A stretch of DNA of 64,000 bases from Candidatus Cloacimonadales bacterium (GCA_963663475.2 CAXXJV010000001.1:640001-704000), one strand, 5' to 3'; numbered from the stretch's first letter, positions 4,833 through 55,790 are shown. A program made the numbers and translations. The notes: generated by a model not told the origin, from the sequence alone.

Positions 4833-4905
4833 GATAATATTGGAATATAACTTGCATCTAACTCATTAAAATGAATTAAATTATAATTAACATAAAGAGG
4901 ATTTT

Positions 4906-7257
4906 ATGAAAAAAAGCTTACTTTTATTACTTTTAGCAACTACGAGTCTGCTCTTTAGTCAAGGAAGTCTCCCTGATTGCTACCCAACTAACCAAGAAAT
5001 AACCGACCAAATTTTGCAATATCAAGAAGACTATCCTGATATTTGTCAAGTTACTGTTGCCGGCTACTCCCAAGAAGATAATTTACCTATTTATTTAGTT
5101 AAATTATCTGAAAATGTCCAAGAATTCCAAGCTGAAAAACCTGTTATTTTATTCAGTTCACTTATCCATGCTGAAGAAGTTTTAGGCATCCCTATTACCC
5201 TTAAAACTATTGATGAAATTCTTACTCATAATAGTTCATCTCCTTACTCAAACTGGCTACAACAGTTACAAATATATTTTATTCCAACCTTAAATCCAGA
5301 AGGCTACCAAGTAGTTTCTGATGGTATCGATACTTCTTACCGTAAAAATAAACGCGATAATAATGAAAATGGCATCTTTGATTTTAACGCTGTTGTTGGC
5401 CATGATATAGATGGTGTTGATCCTAACCGTAACTTCCCGCTAAATTGGGTACACGGTGATACCTTATACTCAACATCAGGACTTGAAGTTTATGACTACT
5501 ATCGTGGTCCTGCCCCTCTTTCAGAATCTGAAGTAAACATTATTTGGGATTTTGTAGAAGAATATAAACCAGTTTATTCTATTCAATGGCACTCATCCAG
5601 AACAGGTAACTTATCGGAAAAAGTCTACTATCCTTGGAACTGGTACAATCTTAGACCATCTCCAGACCTAGATATGTCTGAGCAATTAGGTCTAGGCGTT
5701 GCTGCGAATATGCTTAAAGAAAACCAAGCTAATACTTATGAATGCTATCCAGGAACTGGCCGAAAAGGCTCCCAAGACCATTCCTTATACCAGGCTTTTG
5801 GAACCCTTCAAATCCTTGTTGAATGTGGAACCCTTAATCTTCAACCAGAAGAAGATGGTATGAACTTCGTTGCCCAACAAGGTTATAATGCTTCTGCCTG
5901 GATGCTTAATAGAGCCCTTCCTAATAGCATAGAAACAGCTTCAAACTCTATGCTAACTGGTGTGATTACGGATGCTGTCTCAGGTCAACCCCTAGAAGCT
6001 GAAATCGAAATTGCTGGCCGAAATCAAAGATACCTAGCACCAAGATTATCCTTAGCTGAAAGTGGAAGATACTTCCGCCCTCTTGTTAATGGACAATACA
6101 CTCTTATTGTAAAAAAAGAAGGCTATTATACTCACACCCAAAACATTACTGTCTATAACGTTAGAACTACTAAAAATGTTGAACTAACACCGCTACCTCT
6201 CCCTAACTCAGCTCTATCTCTTAATATTGATGGCTTCTGGGGTCCAGGAAAAGTTAAAATCGAATACCTTGATATTGCAGATCATATAGTAGAAATCGAT
6301 GATTTCACTCCTAATTCTCCCCAAGTTATCGACCTTATTTCAGGACAAGTTATGCTTACCTTCGAAAGCCCTGACCGCTACTTTACTGATGAGTTCACCA
6401 TCCCTAATGGTCCTTATGCTATCAATATCGACCTTACTAACTTCCAAGATTTATTTACTGATTACTTTGATAATTTAGATAATTGGACTGGTACTGATAA
6501 CTGGGATATCACTTCTTATACTAATTCTGAAGGATTAACTCAATCATTCATGTCTGATTCTAAACACTGGAACTTTAATTTTGAATCAGGATATGATAAT
6601 AACTTCTATGAACATAACTGTGATTATCACCTTACAACTAATCAACCAATCATTATCAATCCTGACCGTATTAATTATATAGAATTAGAACACTGGCTCT
6701 ATACTGAATGGGATTATGACTGGGCGACTGTCTATATTAGCTCTGATGGTGTAAATTGGATAGATACACCTGTTTGGACTGAATCTGGCCAGTTTGACTA
6801 CCTCCATAAAGATTGGATTAAAATACCTGATGATTTCACATCTAATCAGCTATATATCACCCTATCTCTAACTGATGACGGGGCTGAACAAAGATTAGTT
6901 GACCCAGGTTGGAATATTAACAAAATCTCTGTTAAATCTTTCTCCCCTCAAGTAACTTCGAATGAAAATGACGTGGTCCAAACTTCAAATTCTCTCTTAG
7001 GTAAAAACTACCCTAATCCATTTAATCCTCAAACTTCAATTAGCTTTAGCTTAGATAAAAATTTAAACCATAATGCTAAAATTGAAATTTATAATTTAAG
7101 GGGACAAAAAGTGAAACAAATCCCTCTCCATGAAAATGATATTAAGGCTGGAAAAGTTACTTGGAATGCTGAAGAACAAGCTTCTGGTGTTTACCTATAT
7201 CGCTTGACTTCTGATGGTATTGTGATTGATACTAAAAAAGCAACATTGCTAAAATAA
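4906..7257 (+). CDS. M14 zinc carboxypeptidase with regulatory-like domain and C-terminal FlgD-Ig/T9SS-like sorting domain
   Basis: HAEE zinc motif, NPEG, RKN, GVDPNRNF, WHS; C-terminus NYPNPFNP...SGVYLYRL. Confidence 0.9.
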   Translation: MKKSLLLLLLATTSLLFSQGSLPDCYPTNQEITDQILQYQEDYPDICQVTVAGYSQEDNLPIYLVKLSENVQEFQAEKPVILFSSLIHAEEVLGIPITLKTIDEILTHNSSSPYSNWLQQLQIYFIPTLNPEGYQVVSDGIDTSYRKNKRDNNENGIFDFNAVVGHDIDGVDPNRNFPLNWVHGDTLYSTSGLEVYDYYRGPAPLSESEVNIIWDFVEEYKPVYSIQWHSSRTGNLSEKVYYPWNWYNLRPSPDLDMSEQLGLGVAANMLKENQANTYECYPGTGRKGSQDHSLYQAFGTLQILVECGTLNLQPEEDGMNFVAQQGYNASAWMLNRALPNSIETASNSMLTGVITDAVSGQPLEAEIEIAGRNQRYLAPRLSLAESGRYFRPLVNGQYTLIVKKEGYYTHTQNITVYNVRTTKNVELTPLPLPNSALSLNIDGFWGPGKVKIEYLDIADHIVEIDDFTPNSPQVIDLISGQVMLTFESPDRYFTDEFTIPNGPYAINIDLTNFQDLFTDYFDNLDNWTGTDNWDITSYTNSEGLTQSFMSDSKHWNFNFESGYDNNFYEHNCDYHLTTNQPIIINPDRINYIELEHWLYTEWDYDWATVYISSDGVNWIDTPVWTESGQFDYLHKDWIKIPDDFTSNQLYITLSLTDDGAEQRLVDPGWNINKISVKSFSPQVTSNENDVVQTSNSLLGKNYPNPFNPQTSISFSLDKNLNHNAKIEIYNLRGQKVKQIPLHENDIKAGKVTWNAEEQASGVYLYRLTSDGIVIDTKKATLLK

Positions 7258-21070: not shown

Positions 21071-21224
21071 GGCTTTTAACCAACGATTTTTAAGAAATAT
21101 TTTAGCAGTTTACCCCCTAAAATTAGTAGATAAAATAACTTTTTAGATTAATGGATAATAAATTGCATTAACTATATGTTAGAGAGTGATTATAAAAAAT
21201 GATATAAAGAAATGAGGAGAAAAA

Positions 21225-24200
21225 ATGAAAAAATTTATTTTGTTGTTTTCCTTGCTTATGACCATTAGTATGGTGATGGCAGTTCAGGAAAACTTAATGG
21301 ATTTACACCAAAACTCTATTACTTTACAGAATAGTAATGATTATGGTGTAGATATCGCTTATGAACTTGGAAACATAGAGATTAAGACTAATAATACTCG
21401 TGGTGGAGAATATGCAGAGATTTTTGCAAAGGACTATTCTTTAACTAAAGATGAGGGTTTACCTCAATTACCATACAGTCAGAAAATCATCTCAGTTCCA
21501 CTTGGTGCAAGTGTTGAAGCTTCTATTGAAGTTAATTCAGCAAGTAGTTTAAACCTAGTCAGAAGAGGTTTTAATCAAGCAATTATTCCTGCTCAACCAT
21601 CTGTGGCTAAGTGTGAAAATATCGAAGATATGCCTTTTATCAAAAATGAACAAATATATAATGCAGATAAAGCTTTTAAATACCAACCAGTAAGTGTTAA
21701 AGAAATTGGTATTTTGAGAGGAATGAGACTTTTTGAAGTTAACTTCTATCCAGTTGAATACAATCCAGTATCTGGAGACCTCCGTGTTATCAACTCTGCA
21801 GATGTTACTATTGAATTTGTCAATGGCGATATCTATGCTACTGAAGAATTAAAAGCTAAAACAAGATCCTTTATGTTTGAAGGTATTTATTCTCAAAACA
21901 TCTTCAACTATTACCCTTCAAGATCTTCTTTAGAAAACTACCCACTTGGCTACTTAATAATTACACCAAACCAATTTATGGATACTTTAGAACCATTCAT
22001 TACCTGGAAACAAGAACAAGGTTATGATGTAACTATTGGTATTACTGATAATATCGGTTCTTCTACAAGTGCAATTAAAAACTATATCCAAGGTATCTGG
22101 GACGCAGCTACTCCTAACAACCCTGCTCCTTCTTACTTATTAATAGTTGGTGATACTCCTCAAGTTCCAGCTTACGCTGGTTCAACAGATTCTGGTCATG
22201 TAACAGACCTTAATTATGTTAGATTAAACGGTACAGACTATCTTCCTGAAATGTATTTTGGAAGATTCTCAGCAACAACAGTTGCCCAGTTAACCCCTCA
22301 AGTTAATAAAACTTTAACCTATCAAAAATATGAAATGTCCGACCCTTCTTACCTTGAAAGAGCAACTCTTATTGCCGGTGTAGATGGTTACTGGGCTAAT
22401 ACTCATGGTAATGGTACCATTAACTATGGTAGCGATAACTATTTCAACGAAGAACATGATATAGATGTTACTACTTATTACTATCCTCAATCAGGTTCTT
22501 CTGCTGCAAGTATCGTAGCAGATGCAAGTGCTGGTTTAGGTTATTTAAATTATACTGCTCATGGTTCTGAAACTTCATGGTCAGACCCTAGTTTTACCAT
22601 TTCAAATATTAATAGTCTCCAAAACTCAGGTAAATATCCTGTTGTTGTAGGAAACTGCTGTTTAACAAATCACTTCAATACAGGTACATGTTTCGGTGAA
22701 GCTTGGTTAAGAGCTACTAACGGTGCAGTTATCTATATTGGTGGAACAAACTCAACCTACTGGGATGAAGACTACTGGTGGTCTGTTGGTCACTTCACTC
22801 CTACTTCAACATCTAACCCAACTTATGCTGGATCTGGACTAGGTATGTACGATGCCCTCTTCCATGAACATAATGAAGCTTTTGAAGACTGGGCTCATAC
22901 TGCAGGTTCTATGGTATTCACAGGTAATATGGCTGTCCAATCCTCAGCTTCAACTAGAAAAAATTATTACTGGGAAATCTACTCAATTATGGGTGACCCT
23001 TCTTTAATGCCTTATATTGGTGTTCCTCAAGCTCAAACTGTTGATTACTCTAACACTATGCTTGTTGGCATGACTTCTCTTAATATCACAGCAGCTCCTT
23101 ATAGCTATGCTGCTCTTTCTAAAGAAGGCCAGCTTCTTGGAACAGTCTTAACAGACGGTACAGGAAATGGTACAATCAACTTTGAAGCACTTAACCTTCC
23201 TGGTAATGTTAAATTAGTTGTGTCTCACACTGACTACCAACCATTTATCACAGATATTGAAGTTGTACCAGCAGAAGGTCCTTTCCTTGTTATTGATAAC
23301 CAACAAATTACTGGAAACATTGCAGCAGGTCAAAACCTCGACATGGCTCTTACTATTGGAAATGTTGGTGTTGAAGCTGTAGCAAATGTTGATGTTACTC
23401 TTACAAGTCTTGATGCTAATGCTACTATTACTAATGCCAATACTACTATAGCTAATATCGATGCAAATAGCACTAGTCAATTAGCTTCTGCTTTTGAAAT
23501 AACACTTGCTAATGGTATCAACCAAGGCGACAATATTGCCTTTAATTTACTCCTTGAATCAGCTGACGAAAGCTGGGAATATGAAATAATGCTAACTGCT
23601 GTTGGACCACATTTTATTATCACTGAAGTTGAAGTAAACGATGGTGATAACAACTTACTTGATCCTAACGAGACTGCTCAACTTTTAATCAGCTTCCAAA
23701 ATAATGGTAATTTTGTAGCTAATACTAGTGTAGCAAGTTTAATCTCAGCAACACCTGGCATAACTATTGCTGATCCAAACATTGCATTAGGAGATATTGC
23801 TGCTAATGCTAACGGTCAATTCACTGTTACTGTTGAAACATCTGCTTATATGGAAACTGGAACTATTGCAAACTTCACTACTAATTTCACTAGTGAATAT
23901 AACGTTATCTCTTCAGATAACTTTGAGCTATCTGTTGGTTTACTCTTTGAAGACTTTGAATCTGGTGACTTTGCATCAGACTTCAACTGGAATACTCCTG
24001 GTTGGTCTGTTGTAAGTAACGAAGCTCATGAAGGTTCTCACTCTGCTAAATCAAATACTATTAACCACAGCCAATCAGCTTCTATGACTGTTCAAATGGA
24101 TGATGTAACTGCAGGTCAAATAAGCTTCTGGGTAAAAGTATCTTCAGAAAGTGGCTATGATGAATTAACTTTCTATATTGATAATGCTGCCCAAGATTCT

Positions 24201-24992
24201 TGGAGTGGTACTGTTAACTGGCAAGAAGTATCTTACAATGTTACTGATGGTAACCATACCTTTAAGTGGGAATATAGCAAAGACTATAGTGTAAGTGAAG
24301 GTGATGATTGTGCTTGGATTGACTATATTGTCTTCCCTACCGCTACAAGTGAAGTTGGCGATCCTGTGATAGCTCTTGATATGACAGAATATGACTTTGG
24401 TGCTGTTGCAAGTGGTCAAACTCAATTCACCATCTCCAACTCTGGCCAAGGTATCTTAGCTGGTCAAATTTCACTTAATAGTCAAAGCGTATTCTCAATA
24501 AGCTTAGAAGACCAAGAAGCTAACAACCAGCTTAATTACTCTCTTGATCCTGAAGCAGAATTGCAAGTAACTCTTCACTTCAATCCTATTGCTAATGTTG
24601 AATACTCTGATAATGTCATTATTACTTCAAATGATCCACAACAGGAACAAGTTGTAATTAATGTTTACGGAACAGGTCAAGGTGTATCTAATGATGACGA
24701 AAACCTTATTCCACAAATAACAGAACTTCAAGGAAACTACCCTAATCCATTTAACCCTCAAACTGCTATTAAATATGCAGTTAAGCAAGATGGAAACGTT
24801 TCCCTTAAAATATTTAATTTAAAAGGCCAGCTTGTTAAAACTCTTGTTAATGATGATGTTAAAGCTGGATTCCATAGTATTGTCTGGGATGGCAAAAATA
24901 ATTTTGGAACAGATGTTGCAACAGGTATATACTTGTATCGTCTAGAAACCAAAACATATAACCAAACCAAAAAGATGATGCTGATGAAATAA
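21225..24992 (+). CDS. Gingipain-like C25 cysteine protease (propeptide, catalytic, Ig-like domains, C-terminal sorting domain)
   Basis: GLPQLP propeptide; YLLIVGD, GRFSA, catalytic YTAHGSETSW and GNCC, MGDPSL; NYPNPFNP...TGIYLYRL C-terminus. Confidence 0.93.
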   Translation: MKKFILLFSLLMTISMVMAVQENLMDLHQNSITLQNSNDYGVDIAYELGNIEIKTNNTRGGEYAEIFAKDYSLTKDEGLPQLPYSQKIISVPLGASVEASIEVNSASSLNLVRRGFNQAIIPAQPSVAKCENIEDMPFIKNEQIYNADKAFKYQPVSVKEIGILRGMRLFEVNFYPVEYNPVSGDLRVINSADVTIEFVNGDIYATEELKAKTRSFMFEGIYSQNIFNYYPSRSSLENYPLGYLIITPNQFMDTLEPFITWKQEQGYDVTIGITDNIGSSTSAIKNYIQGIWDAATPNNPAPSYLLIVGDTPQVPAYAGSTDSGHVTDLNYVRLNGTDYLPEMYFGRFSATTVAQLTPQVNKTLTYQKYEMSDPSYLERATLIAGVDGYWANTHGNGTINYGSDNYFNEEHDIDVTTYYYPQSGSSAASIVADASAGLGYLNYTAHGSETSWSDPSFTISNINSLQNSGKYPVVVGNCCLTNHFNTGTCFGEAWLRATNGAVIYIGGTNSTYWDEDYWWSVGHFTPTSTSNPTYAGSGLGMYDALFHEHNEAFEDWAHTAGSMVFTGNMAVQSSASTRKNYYWEIYSIMGDPSLMPYIGVPQAQTVDYSNTMLVGMTSLNITAAPYSYAALSKEGQLLGTVLTDGTGNGTINFEALNLPGNVKLVVSHTDYQPFITDIEVVPAEGPFLVIDNQQITGNIAAGQNLDMALTIGNVGVEAVANVDVTLTSLDANATITNANTTIANIDANSTSQLASAFEITLANGINQGDNIAFNLLLESADESWEYEIMLTAVGPHFIITEVEVNDGDNNLLDPNETAQLLISFQNNGNFVANTSVASLISATPGITIADPNIALGDIAANANGQFTVTVETSAYMETGTIANFTTNFTSEYNVISSDNFELSVGLLFEDFESGDFASDFNWNTPGWSVVSNEAHEGSHSAKSNTINHSQSASMTVQMDDVTAGQISFWVKVSSESGYDELTFYIDNAAQDSWSGTVNWQEVSYNVTDGNHTFKWEYSKDYSVSEGDDCAWIDYIVFPTATSEVGDPVIALDMTEYDFGAVASGQTQFTISNSGQGILAGQISLNSQSVFSISLEDQEANNQLNYSLDPEAELQVTLHFNPIANVEYSDNVIITSNDPQQEQVVINVYGTGQGVSNDDENLIPQITELQGNYPNPFNPQTAIKYAVKQDGNVSLKIFNLKGQLVKTLVNDDVKAGFHSIVWDGKNNFGTDVATGIYLYRLETKTYNQTKKMMLMK
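24904..24920 (+). promoter_or_regulatory. Putative internal sigma-54 (-24/-12) promoter
   Basis: TTGGAACAGATGTTGCA = GG-N10-GC inside the C25 CDS. Confidence 0.45.
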
Positions 24993-25048
24993 CCTCCTTG
25001 TATGCTAGCAGATAAAGGTTGGGCTCCCCGCCCAACCTTTCTGCATTT
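24935..25048 (+). repeat. 114-bp direct repeat, copy 1 (C25 3' end plus terminator)
   Basis: Matches 25921-26034 with one visible mismatch (GATAAAGG vs GACAAAGG). Confidence 0.95.
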
Positions 25049-25050
25049 TA
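25008..25050 (+). terminator. Terminator hairpin after the C25 gene
   Basis: GCAGA.AAAGGTTGGGC-TCCCC-GCCCAACCTTT.CTGC followed by ATTTT. Confidence 0.8.
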
Positions 25051-25102
25051 AGAACTTTCTTTTTTATCCCTTGCAGGTATTTTATGTAACTTCATTAATT
25101 TT

Positions 25103-25333
25103 GGCTCAAGTTCAAGCCTGGTGGGAATATATAGGAAAATGAGAATATTTCATTACTATATTGATTCATCAAAAATCCCTGAAAGGGATAAAATAATTTA
25201 GCCCAAGGTAAGATGCTGAAAGTATCGCAAGCCTGGGTAATGATGGTTGTCCCAAAGATATTACCCTGTAAGGGTTTAATAAAATGATAAATAATGTAAG
25301 TCTCTTATTTACCACCAGACTTGAACAAGAGCC
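25103..25333. mobile_element. MITE-like element of the GCTCAAGTTCAAG family
   Basis: Ends GGCTCAAGTTCAAGCCTGGTGG / CCACCAGACTTGAACAAGAGCC; body matches ~7958-8150 and ~30001-30170. Confidence 0.75.
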
Positions 25334-25890
25334 TTAATTTTTGATCCATATCTTAGTGTAATTAGTGTAATCCGTGGATAGACTATTTCTTTTTACACAG
25401 TCTGGCCCGCCTTCCCAGTTAGAGCCGTCAGGCGGGGAGAGTAAACATTCCCCTTTCAGCTCCTTGTCAGTGAAACCAGTTAAAGCTGAAAGCGAAAACT
25501 CTCTTCTTGCATCTTAATACTTATTTTCCTGCAACAATCATTATTTTATAAATATTTATATATGTGCAAAATTTACCATACAGTCACGTTGTAAAAGTTG
25601 ATAAATAGCTACTTTTTCATAAAGACTGTCTTATGTCTAATATCATGACTTGAACTTTTCTGTTAAACAGGAGCTTTTCATCCCTTAACTCTTGTATATA
25701 CTGTTTACACATTCTTAATTATTGTCCGTAACAGTGTAGACATTTCTTTAAAAAAGGTAAAAAGTGTAAATTTTCTTACTAGTTATGCTTATTTGTGAGC
25801 TTTCTTTTTTCTAAGGCTAACTTACTAATAGTCTGATATTTATTAAGTATTTTAAAATTATTTTTAACTTTTTTTTGAAATTTAATTTGT

Positions 25891-25907
25891 TTGGAACACC
25901 TATTGCA
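25891..25907 (+). promoter_or_regulatory. Putative sigma-54 promoter
   Basis: TTGGAACACCTATTGCA, GG-N10-GC; AT-rich upstream tract. Confidence 0.6.
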
Positions 25908-25917
25908 TTATTATATA

Positions 25918-26034
25918 AGCGTATCGTCTAGAAACCAAAACATATAACCAAACCAAAAAGATGATGCTGATGAAATAACCTCCTTGTATGCTAGCAGACA
26001 AAGGTTGGGCTCCCCGCCCAACCTTTCTGCATTT
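25918..26034 (+). ncRNA. Candidate sRNA (stand-alone copy of the C25 3'-end segment)
   Basis: Begins ~12 nt after the -12 GC; contains ACCTCCTT; ends in a terminator hairpin; in-frame TAA directly upstream excludes a CDS. Confidence 0.45.
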
Positions 26035-26044
26035 ATAGACTATT

Positions 26045-26740
26045 TTATTTTTCCCAATACTTATCTTGAGGGTATTTTTCTTTTAATTCTTTTGCCAACT
26101 TCTTATATTCTTTCTTCATCTTATTAGCCTGCAAAATCTCTAACTTAAGGAAATTCTCCTCATGGGAAGAAAACTCTTCCTCTGGATCTTCAATATCTTT
26201 TCCCTTGTAAAACATAGCTGTTTCAAAGGTTTTTAAAGCTTCTTTATTTTTCTTTAGCTTCAACTGAGCTCTTGCTAACCACATGTAAGCATCATAATGT
26301 TCTTCTCTTGTTTCAATTGCTTTAGTAAAAGCTTCTTCCGCCTTAACCCAATTTCCTAACTTATAATATACTTCACCCTTATGTCTCCAAGGACAAGACC
26401 AGTTAGCAAATTTATCATTCAAGTAATTATAATGAGGTAGAGATTCCTCAAGTCTTCCTATTGTTAAATAGATATTAGCTAACTGAAACCTTTGGGCAGC
26501 TTGTAAATCGTCTGCAATTTCCTCAAGTTTAGCCAGTGTTTTATTCATCTCTGAATAATGAACCATGAGTAAGTTATAGTTGCTACTAGCCAGGTCTTTA
26601 GAGCTATTTGCATCTTCTAAAACAGCCTTTAGATTTTCAAAACTAGCATCTTCAAAGTAAGACGTTAAGAGATCTTGACTAGCCCCGAAGACAAGTCTAG
26701 TAGCCATCAAAACGATTAAAAGACAAAATACTTTTTTCAT
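26045..26740 (-). CDS. Secreted tetratricopeptide-repeat protein
   Basis: Signal peptide; TPR patterns (LANIY..GR.EE, KGEVYYKLG...AEEAF.KAI, AYMWLARAQ). Confidence 0.8.
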   Translation of the reverse strand: MKKVFCLLIVLMATRLVFGASQDLLTSYFEDASFENLKAVLEDANSSKDLASSNYNLLMVHYSEMNKTLAKLEEIADDLQAAQRFQLANIYLTIGRLEESLPHYNYLNDKFANWSCPWRHKGEVYYKLGNWVKAEEAFTKAIETREEHYDAYMWLARAQLKLKKNKEALKTFETAMFYKGKDIEDPEEEFSSHEENFLKLEILQANKMKKEYKKLAKELKEKYPQDKYWEK

Positions 26741-29304: not shown

Positions 29305-31300
29305 CTTTACGCAGATGACAAGTAGTTACGGGATTGTCTCGAGGGATTCCAGCCCGCGGTTACGCTGAAGACAAGCGGTTACGGTGCCTATGGAGTGGAA
29401 GCATCCTTGCTTGCACACACATTATTCTGAGACAAGAGATGGTCTCAGTCCATAGTTTTTATAACTCGTGATTACGCAGAAGACAAGCGGTTACGGATTG
29501 GGTCGCGGGATTCCAGCCCGCGGTTACGCAGATAATAAAGTGGTAACGGTGCCTAAGGAGTGGAAGCATCCTTGCTTGCACACACATTATTCTGAGACCA
29601 GGGATGGTCTCAGTCCATAGTTTTTTTCTAGCCCGCGGTTGCGAAGGTATCATGCTGTTACCAGGCTTGGCATCTACTATCAGATGGTGGACTGCTTGTC
29701 CGTCACATTATTTTTTGTTAGTTTTTTCCTATTATCCCACTATTTGGGATTATCTTCACTCATCTTTGTAGCAAGTCTATAATTTATCTCAAATCAACAG
29801 AAAAATCGCCTATTCATCCATGTACCTTCCTTTACAGTCTTTCGATGAAACACGGACTTTCATCGAAAGACTGTAAAGGAAGGTACATGGATGACAAGAG
29901 AAAACAACCAGCCATCAAAGAAATGAAAATTTAGAAAAACTAAAAAAAATGAGTCTTCACAAGAGCCAGAAGACCTTTAATAATAAAAATTCTGGATCTA
30001 GTTCAAGTCTGGTGGAAATAATATAGGAAAATTAGAATATTTCATTACTATATTGATTCATCAAAAATCCCTGAAAGGGATAAAATAATTTAGTCCAGGG
30101 TTAGATGCTGAAAGTATCGCAACCCTGGGTAATTATGTATCTAAAAAAGTTTAATCCTGTAATGGTTTGATAAACATTGACTCCTTTCATATTATCTCCT
30201 AGAATTTTCTATTTTTTATCTAGGAAAGTGTACCAGTTTAAACTGCCATCTTCACCATAAGCCCTGTAACCACTTGTCTTCTGCGTAAACGCGGGCTGGA
30301 ATCCCGCGACCCATTCCCGTAACCGCTTGGCATCTACGTAACCGCGGGCTGGAATCCCGCGACCCAAGCCCATAACCACTTTATTATCTGCATAACCGCG
30401 GGCTGGAATCCCGCGACCCAAGCCCATAACCACTTGTAATCTGCATAAACGCGGGCTAGAATCCCGCGACCCAAGCCCGTAACCACTTTATTATCTGCGT
30501 AAACGCGGGCTGGAATCACGCGACCCAATCCCATAACCACTTTATTATCTGCGTAAACGCGGGCTGGAATCCCGCGACCCATTCCCGTAACCGCTTGGCA
30601 TCTACGTAACCGAGGGCTAGAATCCCGCGACCCAATTCCATAACCACTTGTAATCTGGGTAAACGAGGGCTAGAATCCCACGACCCAAGCCCGTAACCAC
30701 TTTATTATCTGCGTAAACGAGGGCTGGAATCCCACGACCCGAAGACGGGCAGGTTTTTGGCAAGGTAGATTTTTCCAAAAACTCTGTGTAACTCCTCTTT
30801 ACCTCGGTGAAACTCTGTGTTAAGGATAATTCTCTTTCGTCAATCCGTGGATAGACTTCTCTTGTAGGCAGTATTATACTGCCTACTGCGAGCAAGGATG
30901 CTCGCGTTCCCAGTTAGTCCCGCGTTCCCAGTAGTAAGTCCCGCACACAGTTAGAATCTTCTTTCTCTCCATCTCACTATCACCCTGTCTCTCCATCTCA
31001 CTATCACCCTGTTTCTCCATCACCCCTGCTTTGAGCCGAAAGGCGAAAATCCTCTTATTCGTGAAATTCGTTTTAATTCGAGTTAATTCGTGTAAAGAAT
31101 CTTCCTTCTTAAAACTCTGTGAACTCTGTGGAAACCTCTGTGAACTCTGTGTTAAGGTTCTTAAAAAATCCGTGAAATCCGTGAAATCCGTGGATAGACT
31201 TCTTTTGTAGGCAGTATAATACTGCCTACTGCGGGCAAGGATGCCCGCCTTCCCAGTTAGTCCCGCGACCCAAATATGGGCAGAATATAGCTTGCTTTCA
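29305..31300. repeat. Large REP-like mosaic
   Basis: Contains CGCGGG-ATTCCAG-CCCGCG units, a 37-bp-stem hairpin (29814-29894), GCGGGCA/TGCCCGC and GTAGGCAG/CTGCCTAC palindromes and CTCTGTG and ATTCG arms; ~29555-29990 is duplicated at ~54141-54575. Confidence 0.9.
30265..30740 (-). repeat. 53-54-bp tandem array, about 9 units
   Basis: GGGTCGCGGGATTCCAGCCCGCG(G/T)TTACGCAGAT(AATAAAG|TACAAG)YGGTTAYGGG repeated on the minus strand. Confidence 0.92.
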
Positions 31301-45693: not shown

Positions 45694-47037
45694 ATGGAAA
45701 AATCAAGAATTCTGATAGCTGATGATGACTATATTTTTTGTGAATTAACTAAGTATATCTTAACTGAGAATAATTTTGATGTGGTTTTAGCTAATAACAG
45801 TGATACAGCAATCAAATATATCAAGGAAAATCCCTGTGATTTAATATTATTAGATCTACATTTTCCTGATTATCAAACAGGTATTAGTAGCCTAGAGAGT
45901 CTTCATACTAGCAATAAAGATATCCCAATTATAATTATTACCAGCGATAATCTGGGCTTGGTCAATAGGTTTCCTGATTTAGTAAGGAAGGGAGCTTATG
46001 ATGTTATTGAAAAGCCAATTCAAGAAGAAAGGCTAATCTTAACTCTCAAAAATGCTCTAAATCATTATAGTTTAAAAAATAAGAAAGCCCTTCATCCTAA
46101 GGCAGAATTTCTTTATCTACTAGGAAACTCCAATCAAATAAGAAAGGTTAGAGAAAAGGTTGAGAACCAACTTAACACAGAGAATAATTTAATTATTTAT
46201 GGAGATAAAGGGACTGGTATCAAGAATATCATCAACAAACTGCATGATAATTCTTCCAGATCAACTAAGAAGATATACACTATTGAGTGTTCAAAATTAA
46301 CCAATAAAGATATGGAGATTGAGTTATTTGGACATCCAACAGAAAGAAATTATGAAAAAAAGTTTAGAGAACTAAAAATTATCCAAGCAGAGAAGTCTTT
46401 TTTTGTGATTAATGATCTTCATTTAATGCCCTTAAAGATTCAAGAAAAGTTGGCTAGAACTCTCCAAGGAAGAAAACTTAAAAATCTGGGCGGGAGAAGT
46501 CTTGAAAATATTGATGTTAAATTAATCTTAACAACAAGCAAGAAGAATTATAGTAAGCCTTTTTCCCCTAATCTCTGCCCACTCCTGGTTAATTTATGTG
46601 AAGATGAACTAATCTTACCTTCACTTGAAGAAAGAGTAGAGGATATTCCTTTATTAGTTAAACATCTGATAAATTCCTATAACCAGACAACTGATTTACA
46701 TGTTACTATTCAGCCTTCAGCCTTAAAAAACCTAGTTAATCACAAATGGAAGAATAATGTTACTGAACTTCAAAAAGTAATGCTTAGAATTTTACATGAA
46801 ATAGATAGTAATGAAATAACTAACAAAGATATTATTTTTAATGAAGAATCAGTGGAATATTTTATACCTTTAACTTTTAAAGAAGCTATTAGAAATTATG
46901 AAAAAATATATTTAGAGCAAATTATGAATTACCATGATTGGTCTTTAAATGATGCTGCCAAAACATTAAATATCGATAGATCAAATCTCTTTAAAAAGTT
47001 ACAAAGACATGGTATAAAAATAAGAAAAAAACGCTAA
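45694..47037 (+). CDS. NtrC-like response regulator with degenerate AAA+ domain and Fis-type HTH
   Basis: Receiver ADDD/LLD/K; LPSLEERVEDIP, W.NNV.EL; HTH AAKTLNIDRSNL; Walker A, GAFTGA and Walker B degenerate. Confidence 0.85.
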   Translation: MEKSRILIADDDYIFCELTKYILTENNFDVVLANNSDTAIKYIKENPCDLILLDLHFPDYQTGISSLESLHTSNKDIPIIIITSDNLGLVNRFPDLVRKGAYDVIEKPIQEERLILTLKNALNHYSLKNKKALHPKAEFLYLLGNSNQIRKVREKVENQLNTENNLIIYGDKGTGIKNIINKLHDNSSRSTKKIYTIECSKLTNKDMEIELFGHPTERNYEKKFRELKIIQAEKSFFVINDLHLMPLKIQEKLARTLQGRKLKNLGGRSLENIDVKLILTTSKKNYSKPFSPNLCPLLVNLCEDELILPSLEERVEDIPLLVKHLINSYNQTTDLHVTIQPSALKNLVNHKWKNNVTELQKVMLRILHEIDSNEITNKDIIFNEESVEYFIPLTFKEAIRNYEKIYLEQIMNYHDWSLNDAAKTLNIDRSNLFKKLQRHGIKIRKKR

Positions 47038-53005: not shown

Positions 53006-55790
53006 GACTAACTGGGAAGAAGGGAATGCTTGTTTCGCAAGAATGAAGAATTAAAAATGAAAAGTGAAAAATAAAGAAGATTCTTTACACAAATTAACAC
53101 GAATTAAGACGAATTTCACGAATTTTTTAAGAACCTTAACACAGAGTTCACAGAGTTTTAAGAAACAAAATTCTTTACACAAATTAACACGAATTAAGAC
53201 GAATTTCACGAATAAGAAGAGCTCCTTAACACAGAGTTCATAGAGGTAAAGAGGAGTTTCACAGAGTTTAGGAAAAAATTAGCTTGCTAAAAGCCTGCCT
53301 GTCCTTGGGTCGCGGGATTCCAGCCCGCGGTTACGCAGATTACAGGTGGTTACGGGATTGGGTCGCGGGATACCAGCCCGCGGTTACGCAGATAATAAAG
53401 CGGTTACGGGAGTAACTGGGAAGGCGGGCATCCTTGCCCGCAGTAGGCAGTATTATACTGCCTACAAACGAAGTCTATCCACGGATTGACGAAAGAAAAT
53501 TATCCTTAACACAGAGTTACACAGAGTTAAAGAGGAGTTGCACAGAGTTTAGGAAAAAATTAGCTTGCTAAAAGCCTGCCTGTCCTTGGGTCGCGGGATT
53601 CCAGCCCGCGTTTACGCAGATTACAAGCGGTTACGGTATTGGGTCGCGGGATTCCAGCCCGCGTTTACGCAGATTACAAGTGGCTACGGGAATGGGTCGC
53701 GGGATTCCAGCCCGCGTTTACGTAGATAATAAAGCGGTTACGGGATTGGGTCGCGGGATTCCAGCCCGCGTTTACGCAGATAATAAAGTGGTTACGGGAT
53801 TGGGTCGCGGGATTCCAGCCCGCGTTTACGCAGATAATAAAGTGGTTACGGGAGTAACTGGGAAGGCGGGCATCCTTGCCCGCAGTAGGCAGTAAAGAAC
53901 TGCCTACAAAAGAAGTCTATCCACGGATTGACGAAAGAAAATTATCCTTAACACAGAGTTACACAGAGGTAAAGAGGAGTTGCACAGAGTTTAATTACAT
54001 AAATCTACCTAGCTAAAAGCCTGCCCGTATTTGGGTCGCGGGATTCCAGCCCGCGGTTACGCAGATAATAAAGCGGTTACGGTATTGGGTCGCGGGATTC
54101 CAGCCCGCGGTTACGCAGGTGTCATGTTGTTACCAGGCCTATGGAGTGGAAGCATCCTTGCTTGCACCCACATTATTCTGAAACCAGGGATAGTCTCAGA
54201 CCATAGTTTTTTTTAACCCGCGTTTACAAAGGTGGCATGCTGTTACCAGGCTTGGCATCTACTAGCAGATGGTGGACAGCTTTTCCGTCACATTATTTTT
54301 TGTTAGCTTTTTCCTATTATCCCATATTTGGGATTATCTTAACTTATCTTGCCACTAATTCTATAATTTATCTTAAATCAACAGAAAAATCACTTATTCA
54401 TCCATGTACCTTCCTTTACAGTCTTTCGATGAAACACGGACTTTCATCGAAAGACCGTAAAGGAAGGGGAAAGGATGACAAGAGAAAACAACCAGCCATC
54501 AAAGAAATGAAAATTTAGAAAAACTAAAAAAAAAATAAGTCTTCGCAAGAGCTAGAAGACCTTCAATAATAAAAAATCTGAAATATGAATAACATATAAA
54601 ACCAATACAGGGTAAGATCTATTAGATAATATTATAAGTGTGGTGGCAAGTATCTTACATAAGGAATATACATCCCTTGCTAACAGTTCTGATAGGCATT
54701 AAACCCAAATAATGCAATAGAGCTCTTCTCTAAAGCTCTATTGCACAATCTGTGTTAAAAAAAAACTGGCTGCAATGGGCAAGATGACCAACTTGTCTAA
54801 AAAGAAAGAAACTATCTGCTAGATTTTTCTATTTTTTATCTAGGAAAGTGTACCATTTTAAACTGCCATCTACATTATGGACTGAGACCATCCCTGGTCT
54901 CAGAATAGTGTGTGTGCAAGCAAAGATGCTTCCACTCAATAAGACCTGTAACAGCATGACACCTGTGTAACCGCGGGCTAGAATCCCGCGACCCAAGGAC
55001 AGACAGGCTTTTAGCAAGATAGATTTTTCCTAAATTCTGTGGTAACCTCTGTGAACTCTGTGTTTAGGATAATTTTGCTTTCGTCAATCCGTGGATAGAC
55101 TTCTTTTGTAGGCAGTATTATACTGCCTACTGCGGGGCAGGGATGCCCGCGTTCCCAGTTAGTCCCGCACCCCAGTTAGAATCTTCTTTCTCTCCATCTC
55201 TCTATCACTCCATCACCCCGTCTTTGAGCCGAAAGGCGAAAATCCTCTTATTCGTGAAATTCGTCTTAATTCGTATTAATTTGTGTAAAGCATCTTGTCC
55301 TATCACTTCTCCTTGTTGAATCTGCTATCGCCCTTCCAGGGCTTATATTTCTATTATTCAATATGGAGTGTCTTACGAACACTCCCTTTTAGCTGTTATC
55401 CCTTCGGGATAATTTTTTTTCTAACTAATGAATGATTATAAAACATATAAATATAATCACTCACTTTTCATTTTTAATTCTTCATTCTTCATTCTTCATT
55501 CTTGCGAAGCAAGCATCTTTGAGCCGAAAGGAGAAAAATCTTACGTCTTCATCTTCTCTGTGTTCTCTGTGGCTCTGTGGTTAGTAGGTATTTCTTCTTT
55601 TTATCGGTGTTTTCAGTGTTATCGGTGGCTAAATATTTCCTCTCTCTTCTTACTTATTCGTGTTTTATTTGTGTTCATTAGTGGCTAAACTCTTCTTCTT
55701 TCTTGTATTCTTTGTGCCTTAGTGGTGAAATAAAATTCGTGAAATTCCTTCTAATTCGCGTTAATTCGTGTAAAGAATTTCCAAAAATAT
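53006..55790. repeat. Large REP-like mosaic (2.8 kb) with 53-54-bp arrays and hairpin copy 3
   Basis: Five tandem CGCGGG/CCCGCG units at ~53587-53850 plus pairs nearby; hairpin 54398-54478; modules in + then - orientation. Confidence 0.9.

Follow-up and report, generated by a model that had tools for sequence, protein, structure and literature searches.

Here we describe a unit of 114 nucleotides (nt) that is encoded twice in the genome of an uncultured Candidatus Cloacimonadales bacterium (3.30 Mb in 2 contigs, 33% G+C, 99% complete). Both copies lie in a 64,000-nt stretch of this genome (GCA_963663475.2 CAXXJV010000001.1:640001-704000), which we call the window and from whose first letter positions are counted. 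Copy 1 is the 3' end of a gene for a secreted C25 peptidase, and copy 2 stands alone behind a sigma-54-type promoter. On balance, we read the unit as a regulatory small RNA (sRNA) of about 115 nt, encoded on the plus strand and limited to two genera of Candidatus Cloacimonadales. That it is a functional plus-strand RNA element is, as a prediction, very likely. It is encoded twice and probably represents a new sRNA family. The reading is built on a conservation pattern, a promoter footprint, a predicted structure, and a regulon context. From these we infer transcription of the RNA, the position of its 5' end, its action in trans, and its targets.

The same unit ends a C25 peptidase gene and stands alone downstream

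The parent gene of copy 1 is a plus-strand open reading frame (ORF) at 21225-24992, which encodes a C25 (gingipain-family) peptidase of 1,255 amino acids (aa). Pfam identified Peptidase_C25 (3.3e-64), Propeptide_C25, FlgD_ig, and Por_Secre_tail. The protein therefore has a propeptide, Ig-like domains, and a FlgD_ig/Por_Secre_tail C-terminal sorting domain for type IX secretion. Copy 1 (24935-25048, plus strand) consists of the final 19 codons and stop of this ORF, which make up its first 58 nt, followed by the 3' untranslated region and a terminator. Copy 2 (25921-26034, plus strand) is free-standing and nearly identical. A sequence-only reading of this DNA had reported a 114-nt recurrence with one mismatch, and the comparison confirmed it, with 113/114 bases identical. 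A repeat search extended the pair to 140 nt at 92% identity. By BLAST there are exactly two copies in the genome and none beyond them; two further matches, at 72%, are the ends of paralogous sorting-domain genes.

Promoter-like boxes precede both copies. TTTGGAAC is at 24903-24910 and 25890-25897, and TTGCA is at 24916-24920 and 25903-25907, which gives the spacing GG-N10-GC in each case. The offset between copies is 987 for the boxes and 986 for the repeat, so the near-equal placement noted in the sequence-only reading is correct. The motif AACCTCCTTG, described there as an anti-Shine-Dalgarno core just before the terminator, was also found in both copies, at 24991-25000 (at the C25 stop) and 25977-25986. 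Upstream of the identical block, the copies still have TTTGGAACA, TTGCA, TATATA, and GTATCG in common (about 30/40 columns by eye) and then nothing. Copy 2 had been said to have no ORF. This holds for plus-strand ORFs of at least 40 aa, save for a 47-aa frame with a TTG start at 25984-26127. That frame starts within the element and continues into DNA that is unalignable between species.

The unit is invariant in two genera

We searched 41 related genomes for the unit. Strong matches occurred only in six other genomes of the genus (two copies each) and in one genome of a sister genus, G008, which has only the gene-embedded copy. The element was absent from 4/4 genomes of a third genus of the family, and the weaker matches in the remaining genomes were only the generic ends of sorting-domain genes. 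A search of 185,579 species representatives for exact 26-mers returned the 7 genomes that had given the strong matches. A metagenome scan added one more contig (L103), which carries both copies. With this contig and the 7 genomes of the genus taken together, copy 2 is present in 8/8. Sequence identity of the unit is 97 to 100% within the genus and 93% in G008. Retention of both copies in 6/6 other genomes of the genus, and of the embedded one in the sister genus, points to more than chance.

Distant homologs were sought with a covariance model (R1) in 151 genomes of the order. There were 71 that matched at an E value of ≤0.01, of which only 8 reached at least 139 bits, and the other matches scored ≤51.7 bits. 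Twelve matches were re-scored, and the eight alignments inspected among them were generic sorting-domain 3' ends and terminators without CCUCC. This model therefore found no distant homologs of the element in those genomes. In an Infernal comparison with Rfam, no family reached its gathering score anywhere in the 64-kb window, and E values of up to 5 on 24850-26100 gave sub-threshold terminator matches only. The element thus lies outside known Rfam families.

The edges of the unit were analyzed with copy 1 of 7 genomes. Variable columns make up 34/89 of the coding sequence before TTTGGAAC and 5/31 of the promoter-like stretch. They then fall to 0/58 in the last 19 codons and stop and 0/20 in the linker that follows, before rising to 10/36 in the terminator and 50/52 downstream. 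The invariant block, 24935-25012, is therefore 0/78, compared to 34/89 in the upstream coding sequence (Fisher, P = 1.6e-11). The codons tell the same story. Among the 30 that precede TTT-GGA, 12 show synonymous and 11 show non-synonymous variation, and among the last 19 none shows any. At the protein level, the C25 ortholog of G008 is only 59% identical across the C-terminal 755 residues, and those of genus g2 and G013 are 39 to 40% identical. The g2 and G013 genes have ordinary 3' ends, with neither the boxes nor CCUCC. The unit appears to have arisen in the ancestor of the two genera and to have been frozen at the nucleotide level since. That G008 has no other copy shows that the embedded one is itself under the constraint. 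In addition, G002 and G005 have a compensatory stem change in copy 1 and not in copy 2, so the identity of the copies is not simply ongoing homogenization.

Copy 2 has the footprint of a sigma-54-type promoter

The sigma-54-type promoter of copy 2 spans 25890-25907 on the plus strand, with GG at 25893-25894 and GC at 25905-25906. Counting from this GC, the rule of thumb puts +1 at 25918, 3 nt before the first invariant base, G25921. The sequence-only reading had placed the predicted +1 almost at the start of the repeat, as it indeed is. Invariance begins at the equivalent G in both copies (24935 and 25921), 3 to 4 nt past the predicted +1.

The spacer between the copies, here 25049-25889 (unstranded), ranges from 370 to 875 nt across species and is unalignable. 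The 8- to 10-mers common to at least 6/7 species spacers were TTGTTTGGAA and CTATTGCATTAT, plus a trivial AT-only word, TTTTAAAA. The boxes themselves are invariant, whereas the 3 to 5 bases between them vary (ACC, AGC, AAC, GGC, or GAC, with AAGAA in the metagenome contig). Conservation of only the promoter-like boxes had been claimed from the two copies of one genome and is now seen across species. It looks like the footprint expected of a -24/-12 promoter. A further suggestion, that the AT-rich DNA upstream holds enhancer and IHF sites, found no support: no upstream word of 8 to 10 nt is conserved, and part of the spacer is a dispersed repeat of about 200 nt. No activator gene adjoins the promoter. 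We think it likely that copy 2 is an independent sigma-54 transcript.

The promoter class mainly marks secreted type IX cargo

The sequence-only reading had left the presence of rpoN to be checked. The gene is encoded (Sigma54_DBD, 171.7 bits in a 487-aa frame). Sigma54_activat gave 14 matches over the cut-off, 10 at ≥196 bits and one at 82 bits, and the genome has about 11 strong activator genes. In the window, the ORF at 45694-47037, about 20 kb from the element, has a weaker match to this family (82 bits).

The pattern TGGAAY-N6-TGCA is intergenic in 12/27 occurrences, compared to 7/85 for six other spacings (P = 7e-5); the intergenic fraction of the genome is 12.6%. This enrichment is found only at the N6 spacing, and the motif behaves as the sigma-54 promoter type of the genome. 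We listed 21 intergenic sites, 12 with the strict pattern and 9 relaxed ones picked by eye. An ORF of at least 60 aa lies within 500 nt downstream of 19/21. A type IX sorting domain was present in 10/15 scanned downstream proteins (the scan did not take in the ORFs at sites 857890, 1691568, C2:112556, and 2870763). Across the genome, 2,761 ORFs of ≥90 aa yield at least 149 sorting-domain matches, a baseline of about 5%. The downstream sorting-domain proteins include two more C25 peptidases, an S8 subtilase, and an M14 carboxypeptidase. The gene for the last of these is in the window (4906-7257), where TGGAAT-N5-TTGCAT occurs at 4841-4856, 38 nt 5' of it.

The parent gene also belongs to this class. 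Its sigma-54-type promoter, TGGATA-N5-TTGCAT, is at 21152-21168 on the plus strand, about 57 nt 5' of the ATG. In 6/6 aligned genomes of the genus (G005 not included), TGG(A/T)TA-N5-TTGCAT is the sole alignable block 5' of the ribosome-binding site (RBS). The C25 gene of G008 has TGGTTC-N5-TTGCAA upstream.

The predicted RNA has two C-rich single-stranded motifs

The predicted fold of a 119-nt RNA starts with a 9-bp stem, GUAUCGUCU/AGAUGAUGC, which includes two G-U pairs and closes a 29-nt CA-rich loop. Next comes a 26-nt unpaired linker containing AACCUCCUUG (CCUCCUU). The 3' part is an interrupted 15-bp hairpin with a UCCCC loop and a short U-rich tail. On the plus strand, these parts correspond to 24935-24981 (stem-loop 1), 24982-25007 (linker), 25008-25044 (terminator), and 25025-25029 (UCCCC loop) in copy 1, and to 25921-25967, 25968-25993, 25994-26030, and 26011-26015, respectively, in copy 2. 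The copy 2 fold has a ΔG of -33.5 kcal/mol and a z score of -5.5 on the plus strand, and 0/200 shuffles were as good. The z score of the opposite strand is -3.0, and the G-U pairs of stem 1 form only on the plus strand. A terminator scan called the copy 1 stem-loop at 25014-25040 and its T tail, also on the plus strand.

Across 15 copies, compensatory double changes affect 3/24 pairs, all in the terminator. The terminator loop and everything 5' of the bulge are constant, and the 29-nt CA-rich loop is invariant in 15/15. Stem 1 as a selected structure is weakly supported.

A second locus has the same design

A second candidate sigma-54-dependent sRNA lies outside the window (G000:C1:1181759-1181960; loci L069/L084). 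Here an orphan TGGAAC-N5-TTGCAT (C1:1181780), a strict site without an ORF behind it, is followed by about 155 nt with a long terminator. The locus is present in 6/6 genomes in the genus and in G008 but in 0/4 in g2, which matches the phyletic range of the element. It has the same footprint, an invariant core, a terminator with compensatory changes, and a fold z score of -4.9. Its 10-bp hairpin carries the pentaloop UCCCC closed by C-G. There are 24 UCCCC-loop hairpins with stems of at least 5 bp in the genome, and stems of at least 10 bp occur only at this locus and in the two copies of our element. Orphan sigma-54-type promoters thus appear to be tied to a common C-rich loop. The predicted pairing of the two RNAs with each other is weaker than that of shuffles (-27.9 versus a mean of -36.7). 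At a third site of the promoter class, G000:C1:857890, the sole ORF downstream is 406 nt away, encodes 84 aa, and lacks a Shine-Dalgarno match. This site may be the start of a further non-coding transcript.

Copy 1 could yield the RNA by processing or from boxes in its coding sequence

The boxes upstream of copy 1 (24903-24920, plus strand; GG at 24906-24907 and GC at 24918-24919) lie within the C25 coding sequence. The sequence-only reading saw in them a promoter encoded by the Gly-x-x-Val-Ala codons of the sorting domain. The boxes are present, and the GGA, GTT, and GCA codons of the nested TTTGGAAC-N5-TTGCA are invariant in 7 genomes. This stretch is also less variable than the coding sequence upstream of it (P = 0.027 for the column counts given above). 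However, it encodes the most conserved motif of the protein, G-x-x-V-A-T-G-x-Y, which confounds the low variation. Paralogs have the VATG codons as well but lack the TGGAAC box. These comparisons neither prove nor refute a promoter within the coding sequence. None is required, because the C25 gene has a conserved sigma-54-type promoter of its own, and processing of the mRNA could yield the same RNA. As in sRNAs of the processed 3'-end type, the parent mRNA lies behind that promoter and has its terminator in common with the RNA.

In the simplest history, the 3' end of the gene would have been duplicated in tandem in the genus ancestor, after which copy 2 retained only what promoter and RNA need. 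What it retained corresponds exactly to the -24 and -12 boxes, which suggests that these were already active within the coding sequence. This is not proof of a nested promoter, because the promoter of the parent mRNA and processing would suffice. More tentatively, the locus might be a snapshot of the birth of an sRNA gene. The RNA and its promoter would have evolved in the last 30 or so codons of the gene and then been duplicated. Together with the second UCCCC-loop RNA, they would now form a post-transcriptional arm of the sigma-54 regulon of type IX peptidases. In the same tentative scenario, the RNA would have frozen 19 codons at every synonymous site, and the duplicate would have shed all coding sequence save the boxes and the RNA.

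The RNA may act on ribosome-binding sites

In the mechanism that we propose, RpoN would initiate transcription of copy 2 near 25918, from TGGAAC-N5-TTGCAT, and the hairpin at 25994-26030 would terminate it. The copy 1 RNA would be released from the 3' end of the C25 mRNA, either by processing or from the look-alike promoter in the last codons. Both routes would link the RNA to the sigma-54 regulon, which is mainly secreted type IX cargo and includes many peptidases. The exposed C-rich motifs would then, independently of Hfq, reduce the translation of target mRNAs by pairing with their Shine-Dalgarno or G-rich sites.

The linker sequence ACCUCCUU is identical over 8 nt to the 3' tail of the 16S rRNA of the same organism, GGAUCACCUCCUUU. 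No Hfq gene and no CsrA gene were found in the 99% complete genome. The layout, with C-rich motifs in the unpaired linker and the terminator loop, more than one gene copy, and no Hfq, resembles that demonstrated experimentally for LhrC of Listeria, and this likeness favors pairing with RBSs or G-rich mRNA sites. The sequence-only reading had proposed that the RNA pairs with AGGAG RBSs. The 8-nt identity to the 16S tail, in a segment predicted to be single-stranded, speaks for this, but target scans were no better than flank-shuffled controls. From the sequence, anti-Shine-Dalgarno action of the linker is only plausible. Base-pairing through the C-rich motifs in general has, in our estimate, a little less than an even chance of being correct.

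Observations that count against a regulatory RNA

Several observations weigh against a regulatory RNA, or against parts of its proposed working. The target scans gave no nameable target. A scan with the 30-nt linker found 147 sites at ≤-18 kcal/mol, compared to 94 to 365 in eight flank-shuffled controls that kept CCUCC. The copy 2-specific junction was covered by no contig in four RNA sequencing runs. In one of these (X1), depth was higher at the 3' end of the C25 gene (38 versus 13), but this does not serve as a sign of an sRNA. The step is at 24898, and it arises because co-occurring relatives have identical sequence from 24898 on, where the base differs between species. Stem 1 and the linker are invariant, so they provide no covariation. 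Pairing of the stem 1 type was also found in unrelated sorting-domain 3' ends (loci L051-L062, other Cloacimonadales). Such hairpins are generic because the Y-R-L codons, UAUCGUCU, complement the K-M-M-L codons, AGAUGAUG. The T tail of copy 2 is one T short of the terminator rule. The -24 box has A where the textbook box has C (TGGAAC versus TGGCAC). Finally, no conserved activator site was found upstream of copy 2 among exact 8- to 10-mers of the 7 spacers, a search that did not extend to degenerate sites.

Other pairing searches were negative as well. BLAST complementarity gave matches of ≤15 nt, none at a clear start site, and the start regions of neighboring genes were unremarkable as targets. 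CGGGGAG occurs ahead of start codons in five unrelated cases. When RNAduplex was used to compare the 5' 76 nt with 3,991 candidate start regions, unrealistic long-loop duplexes dominated the output, and the result was rejected.

The RNA evidence consists of assembled contigs of metatranscriptomes, which cannot show RNA ends and in which DNA carry-over and mixed strains are possible. Contigs from 2/4 runs (X1 and X9, from two studies) cover the C25 3' end, from 24898 or 24902 to 25018 or 25048. Run X8 had nothing, and X13 had only a 32-nt piece of a repeat. Small word shares in 18 RNA runs are not counted as evidence here.

Alternative explanations

The null result of the target scans is what would be expected if the RNA were real but acted on a protein. 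In that case, its CA-rich and C-rich loops would be a sponge or decoy that titrates an RNA-binding protein, in the way that CrcZ titrates Hfq/Crc. The 29-nt CA-rich loop, invariant in all 15 copies, fits this, and a common protein partner would be well suited by an identical UCCCC pentaloop, closed by C-G, in a second, unrelated RNA. However, no Hfq or CsrA gene was detected in the 99% complete genome, and no protein emerged as a candidate. RBS pairing is also the better explanation of the exact identity, over 8 nt, to the anti-Shine-Dalgarno tail. We regard a sponge as unlikely.

The boxes themselves could be read as a housekeeping sigma-70-type promoter, TTGGAA-17/18-TATAAG/TATACT, in which case the RNA would not depend on RpoN. 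A consensus scan found TTGGAA-18-TATACT at 24904-24933, with 9/12 matches. Copy 2 has TTGGAA-17-TATAAG by eye, and the ATATAA block is conserved like the boxes. Even so, the region has no more sigma-70-like matches than shuffles have (7 versus 6.3). In addition, such a promoter would have TATTGCATTA in its spacer, even though this sequence is invariant in 7/7 species. At the other sites of the class, a TATA-like block occurs at a variable distance (11 to 16 nt by eye), whereas the GG-N10-GC spacing is fixed and enriched. Sites of the class also adjoin activator genes, at 498310 and 1041346. A sigma-70 promoter therefore seems distinctly improbable.

Less probable still is an element confined to a cis role at the 3' end of the C25 mRNA, where it would signal stability, termination, or translation termination, with copy 2 non-functional and kept similar by gene conversion. 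Copy 1 is the older one, being the sole copy in G008, and the contigs from RNA libraries contain only the copy 1 form. Against this, copy 2 is kept in 8/8 genomes or contigs, with unalignable flanks and a sharp promoter footprint. Because the flank of the -12 box and the spacing differ between the copies, conversion from copy 1 is no explanation for that footprint. The compensatory pair that distinguishes the copies in G002 and G005 argues in the same direction, and a plain terminator needs no 78 invariant bases.

Function on the minus strand is a very remote prospect. It could involve AAGGAGGT as the RBS of a short hydrophobic peptide, or use of the region by the mRNA of the convergent tetratricopeptide repeat (TPR) gene downstream. 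The reverse complement does read CAAGGAGGTTATTTCATC, and a 23-codon hydrophobic frame, found by eye, ends in the -12 box of copy 2. However, the frame has no suitably placed ATG, GTG, or TTG and would need ATC. In copy 1 it extends to 58 to 70 aa, so the frame is not conserved as a unit. The weaker fold of this strand, its hairpin without a T tail, and the footprint all point to the plus strand. Equally remote is the idea that a small mobile element inserted into the 3' end of the gene and left the copies behind as direct repeats that resemble attachment sites: they do flank a variable spacer, which here holds a dispersed repeat, but the spacer has no integrase or other gene, the spacers of different species have almost nothing in common, such repeats are not expected to be invariant in 8 genomes or to have a conserved promoter, and the partial similarity 5' of the repeat fits a segmental duplication.

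Neighboring features

A convergent TPR-repeat gene (26045-26740, minus strand; an ORF with matches to TPR families) follows copy 2, so nothing coding lies 3' of copy 2 on the plus strand. Between the copies, the dispersed repeat of about 200 nt is at 25097-25298. The spacer has 153 BLAST matches in its own genome, many of them 91 to 96% identical over about 200 nt. The repeat looks like a miniature mobile element or one of the repetitive extragenic palindromic (REP) type, and it explains part of the differences in spacer length among species. A piece of about 32 to 40 nt at 25351-25392 recurs with different flanks in several contigs of two unrelated RNA runs (X9 and X13), and it probably belongs to another repeat. 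Elsewhere in the window, a short palindromic GTGGAAGCA...TGCTTCCAC hairpin occurs at 29395-29416, 29560-29581, 54146-54167, and 54914-54935. It is found at many intergenic sites of the genome, often in tandem. Although this hairpin resembles the relaxed -24/-12 pattern, it is a REP-like element.

Comparison with known systems

Cloacimonadota are abundant fermenters of amino acids and propionate in digesters and sediments. A literature search found no described small RNAs for this phylum. If our reading is correct, the element and its second-locus counterpart would be the first riboregulator candidates of the phylum, with sigma-54 as input and secreted type IX peptidases as context. The locus would also be a natural example of mRNA 3' ends as a nursery of sRNA genes, and an example of a coding sequence frozen by an overlapping RNA function. 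In practice, annotation of sigma-54 regulons in these AT-rich genomes could then draw on the promoter rule TGGAAY-N5-TTGCAT.

In how it would work, the element resembles three known kinds of sRNA, although by sequence it appears to be a member of none. The first kind is derived from mRNA 3' ends. DapZ and MicL have a promoter inside the parent coding sequence, and CpxQ is processed from its parent mRNA. GlnZ is processed from the glnA mRNA, and glnA/GlnZ is reported to be under NtrC-sigma-54. Like these RNAs, ours would share the terminator and the last part of a parent mRNA, with 3' coding overlap, and as with glnA/GlnZ, the parent gene is behind a specialized promoter. Unlike them, the unit includes 19 codons without synonymous change and has a free-standing duplicate with its own promoter.

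The second kind is made with sigma-54. Qrr1-5, CrcZ/CrcY, and GlmY are sigma-54-dependent sRNAs. CJnc230 of Campylobacter is reported to be made with an RpoN-dependent flagellar mRNA. The element shares with this kind an orphan -24/-12 promoter followed by a short terminated RNA, in more than one copy, all of which is predicted here. As with CJnc230, one form is tied to an RpoN-dependent mRNA, here one with a sigma-54-type promoter. It differs from Qrr, CrcZ, GlmY, and CJnc230 in having no homology to them, a -24 box of TGGAAC, and a regulon of secreted type IX cargo and peptidases.

The third kind, from low-GC bacteria, uses UCCC or other C-rich motifs. In LhrC of Listeria, C-rich sites bind the Shine-Dalgarno region of lapB, and the RNA is multicopy and Hfq independent (PMC4132741). 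Our element is like LhrC1-5, RsaE/RoxS, and RNAIII in that C-rich motifs occupy the terminator loop and an unpaired segment separating two stem-loops, and like LhrC in having more than one gene copy and an Hfq-free layout. Unlike LhrC, RsaE, and RoxS, with which it has no sequence or Rfam relationship, it has a CA-rich first loop, and both the phylum and the promoter type differ. What would set the element apart from all three kinds are its frozen codons, a free-standing sibling whose promoter was inherited from coding sequence, and its link to sigma-54 and type IX cargo.

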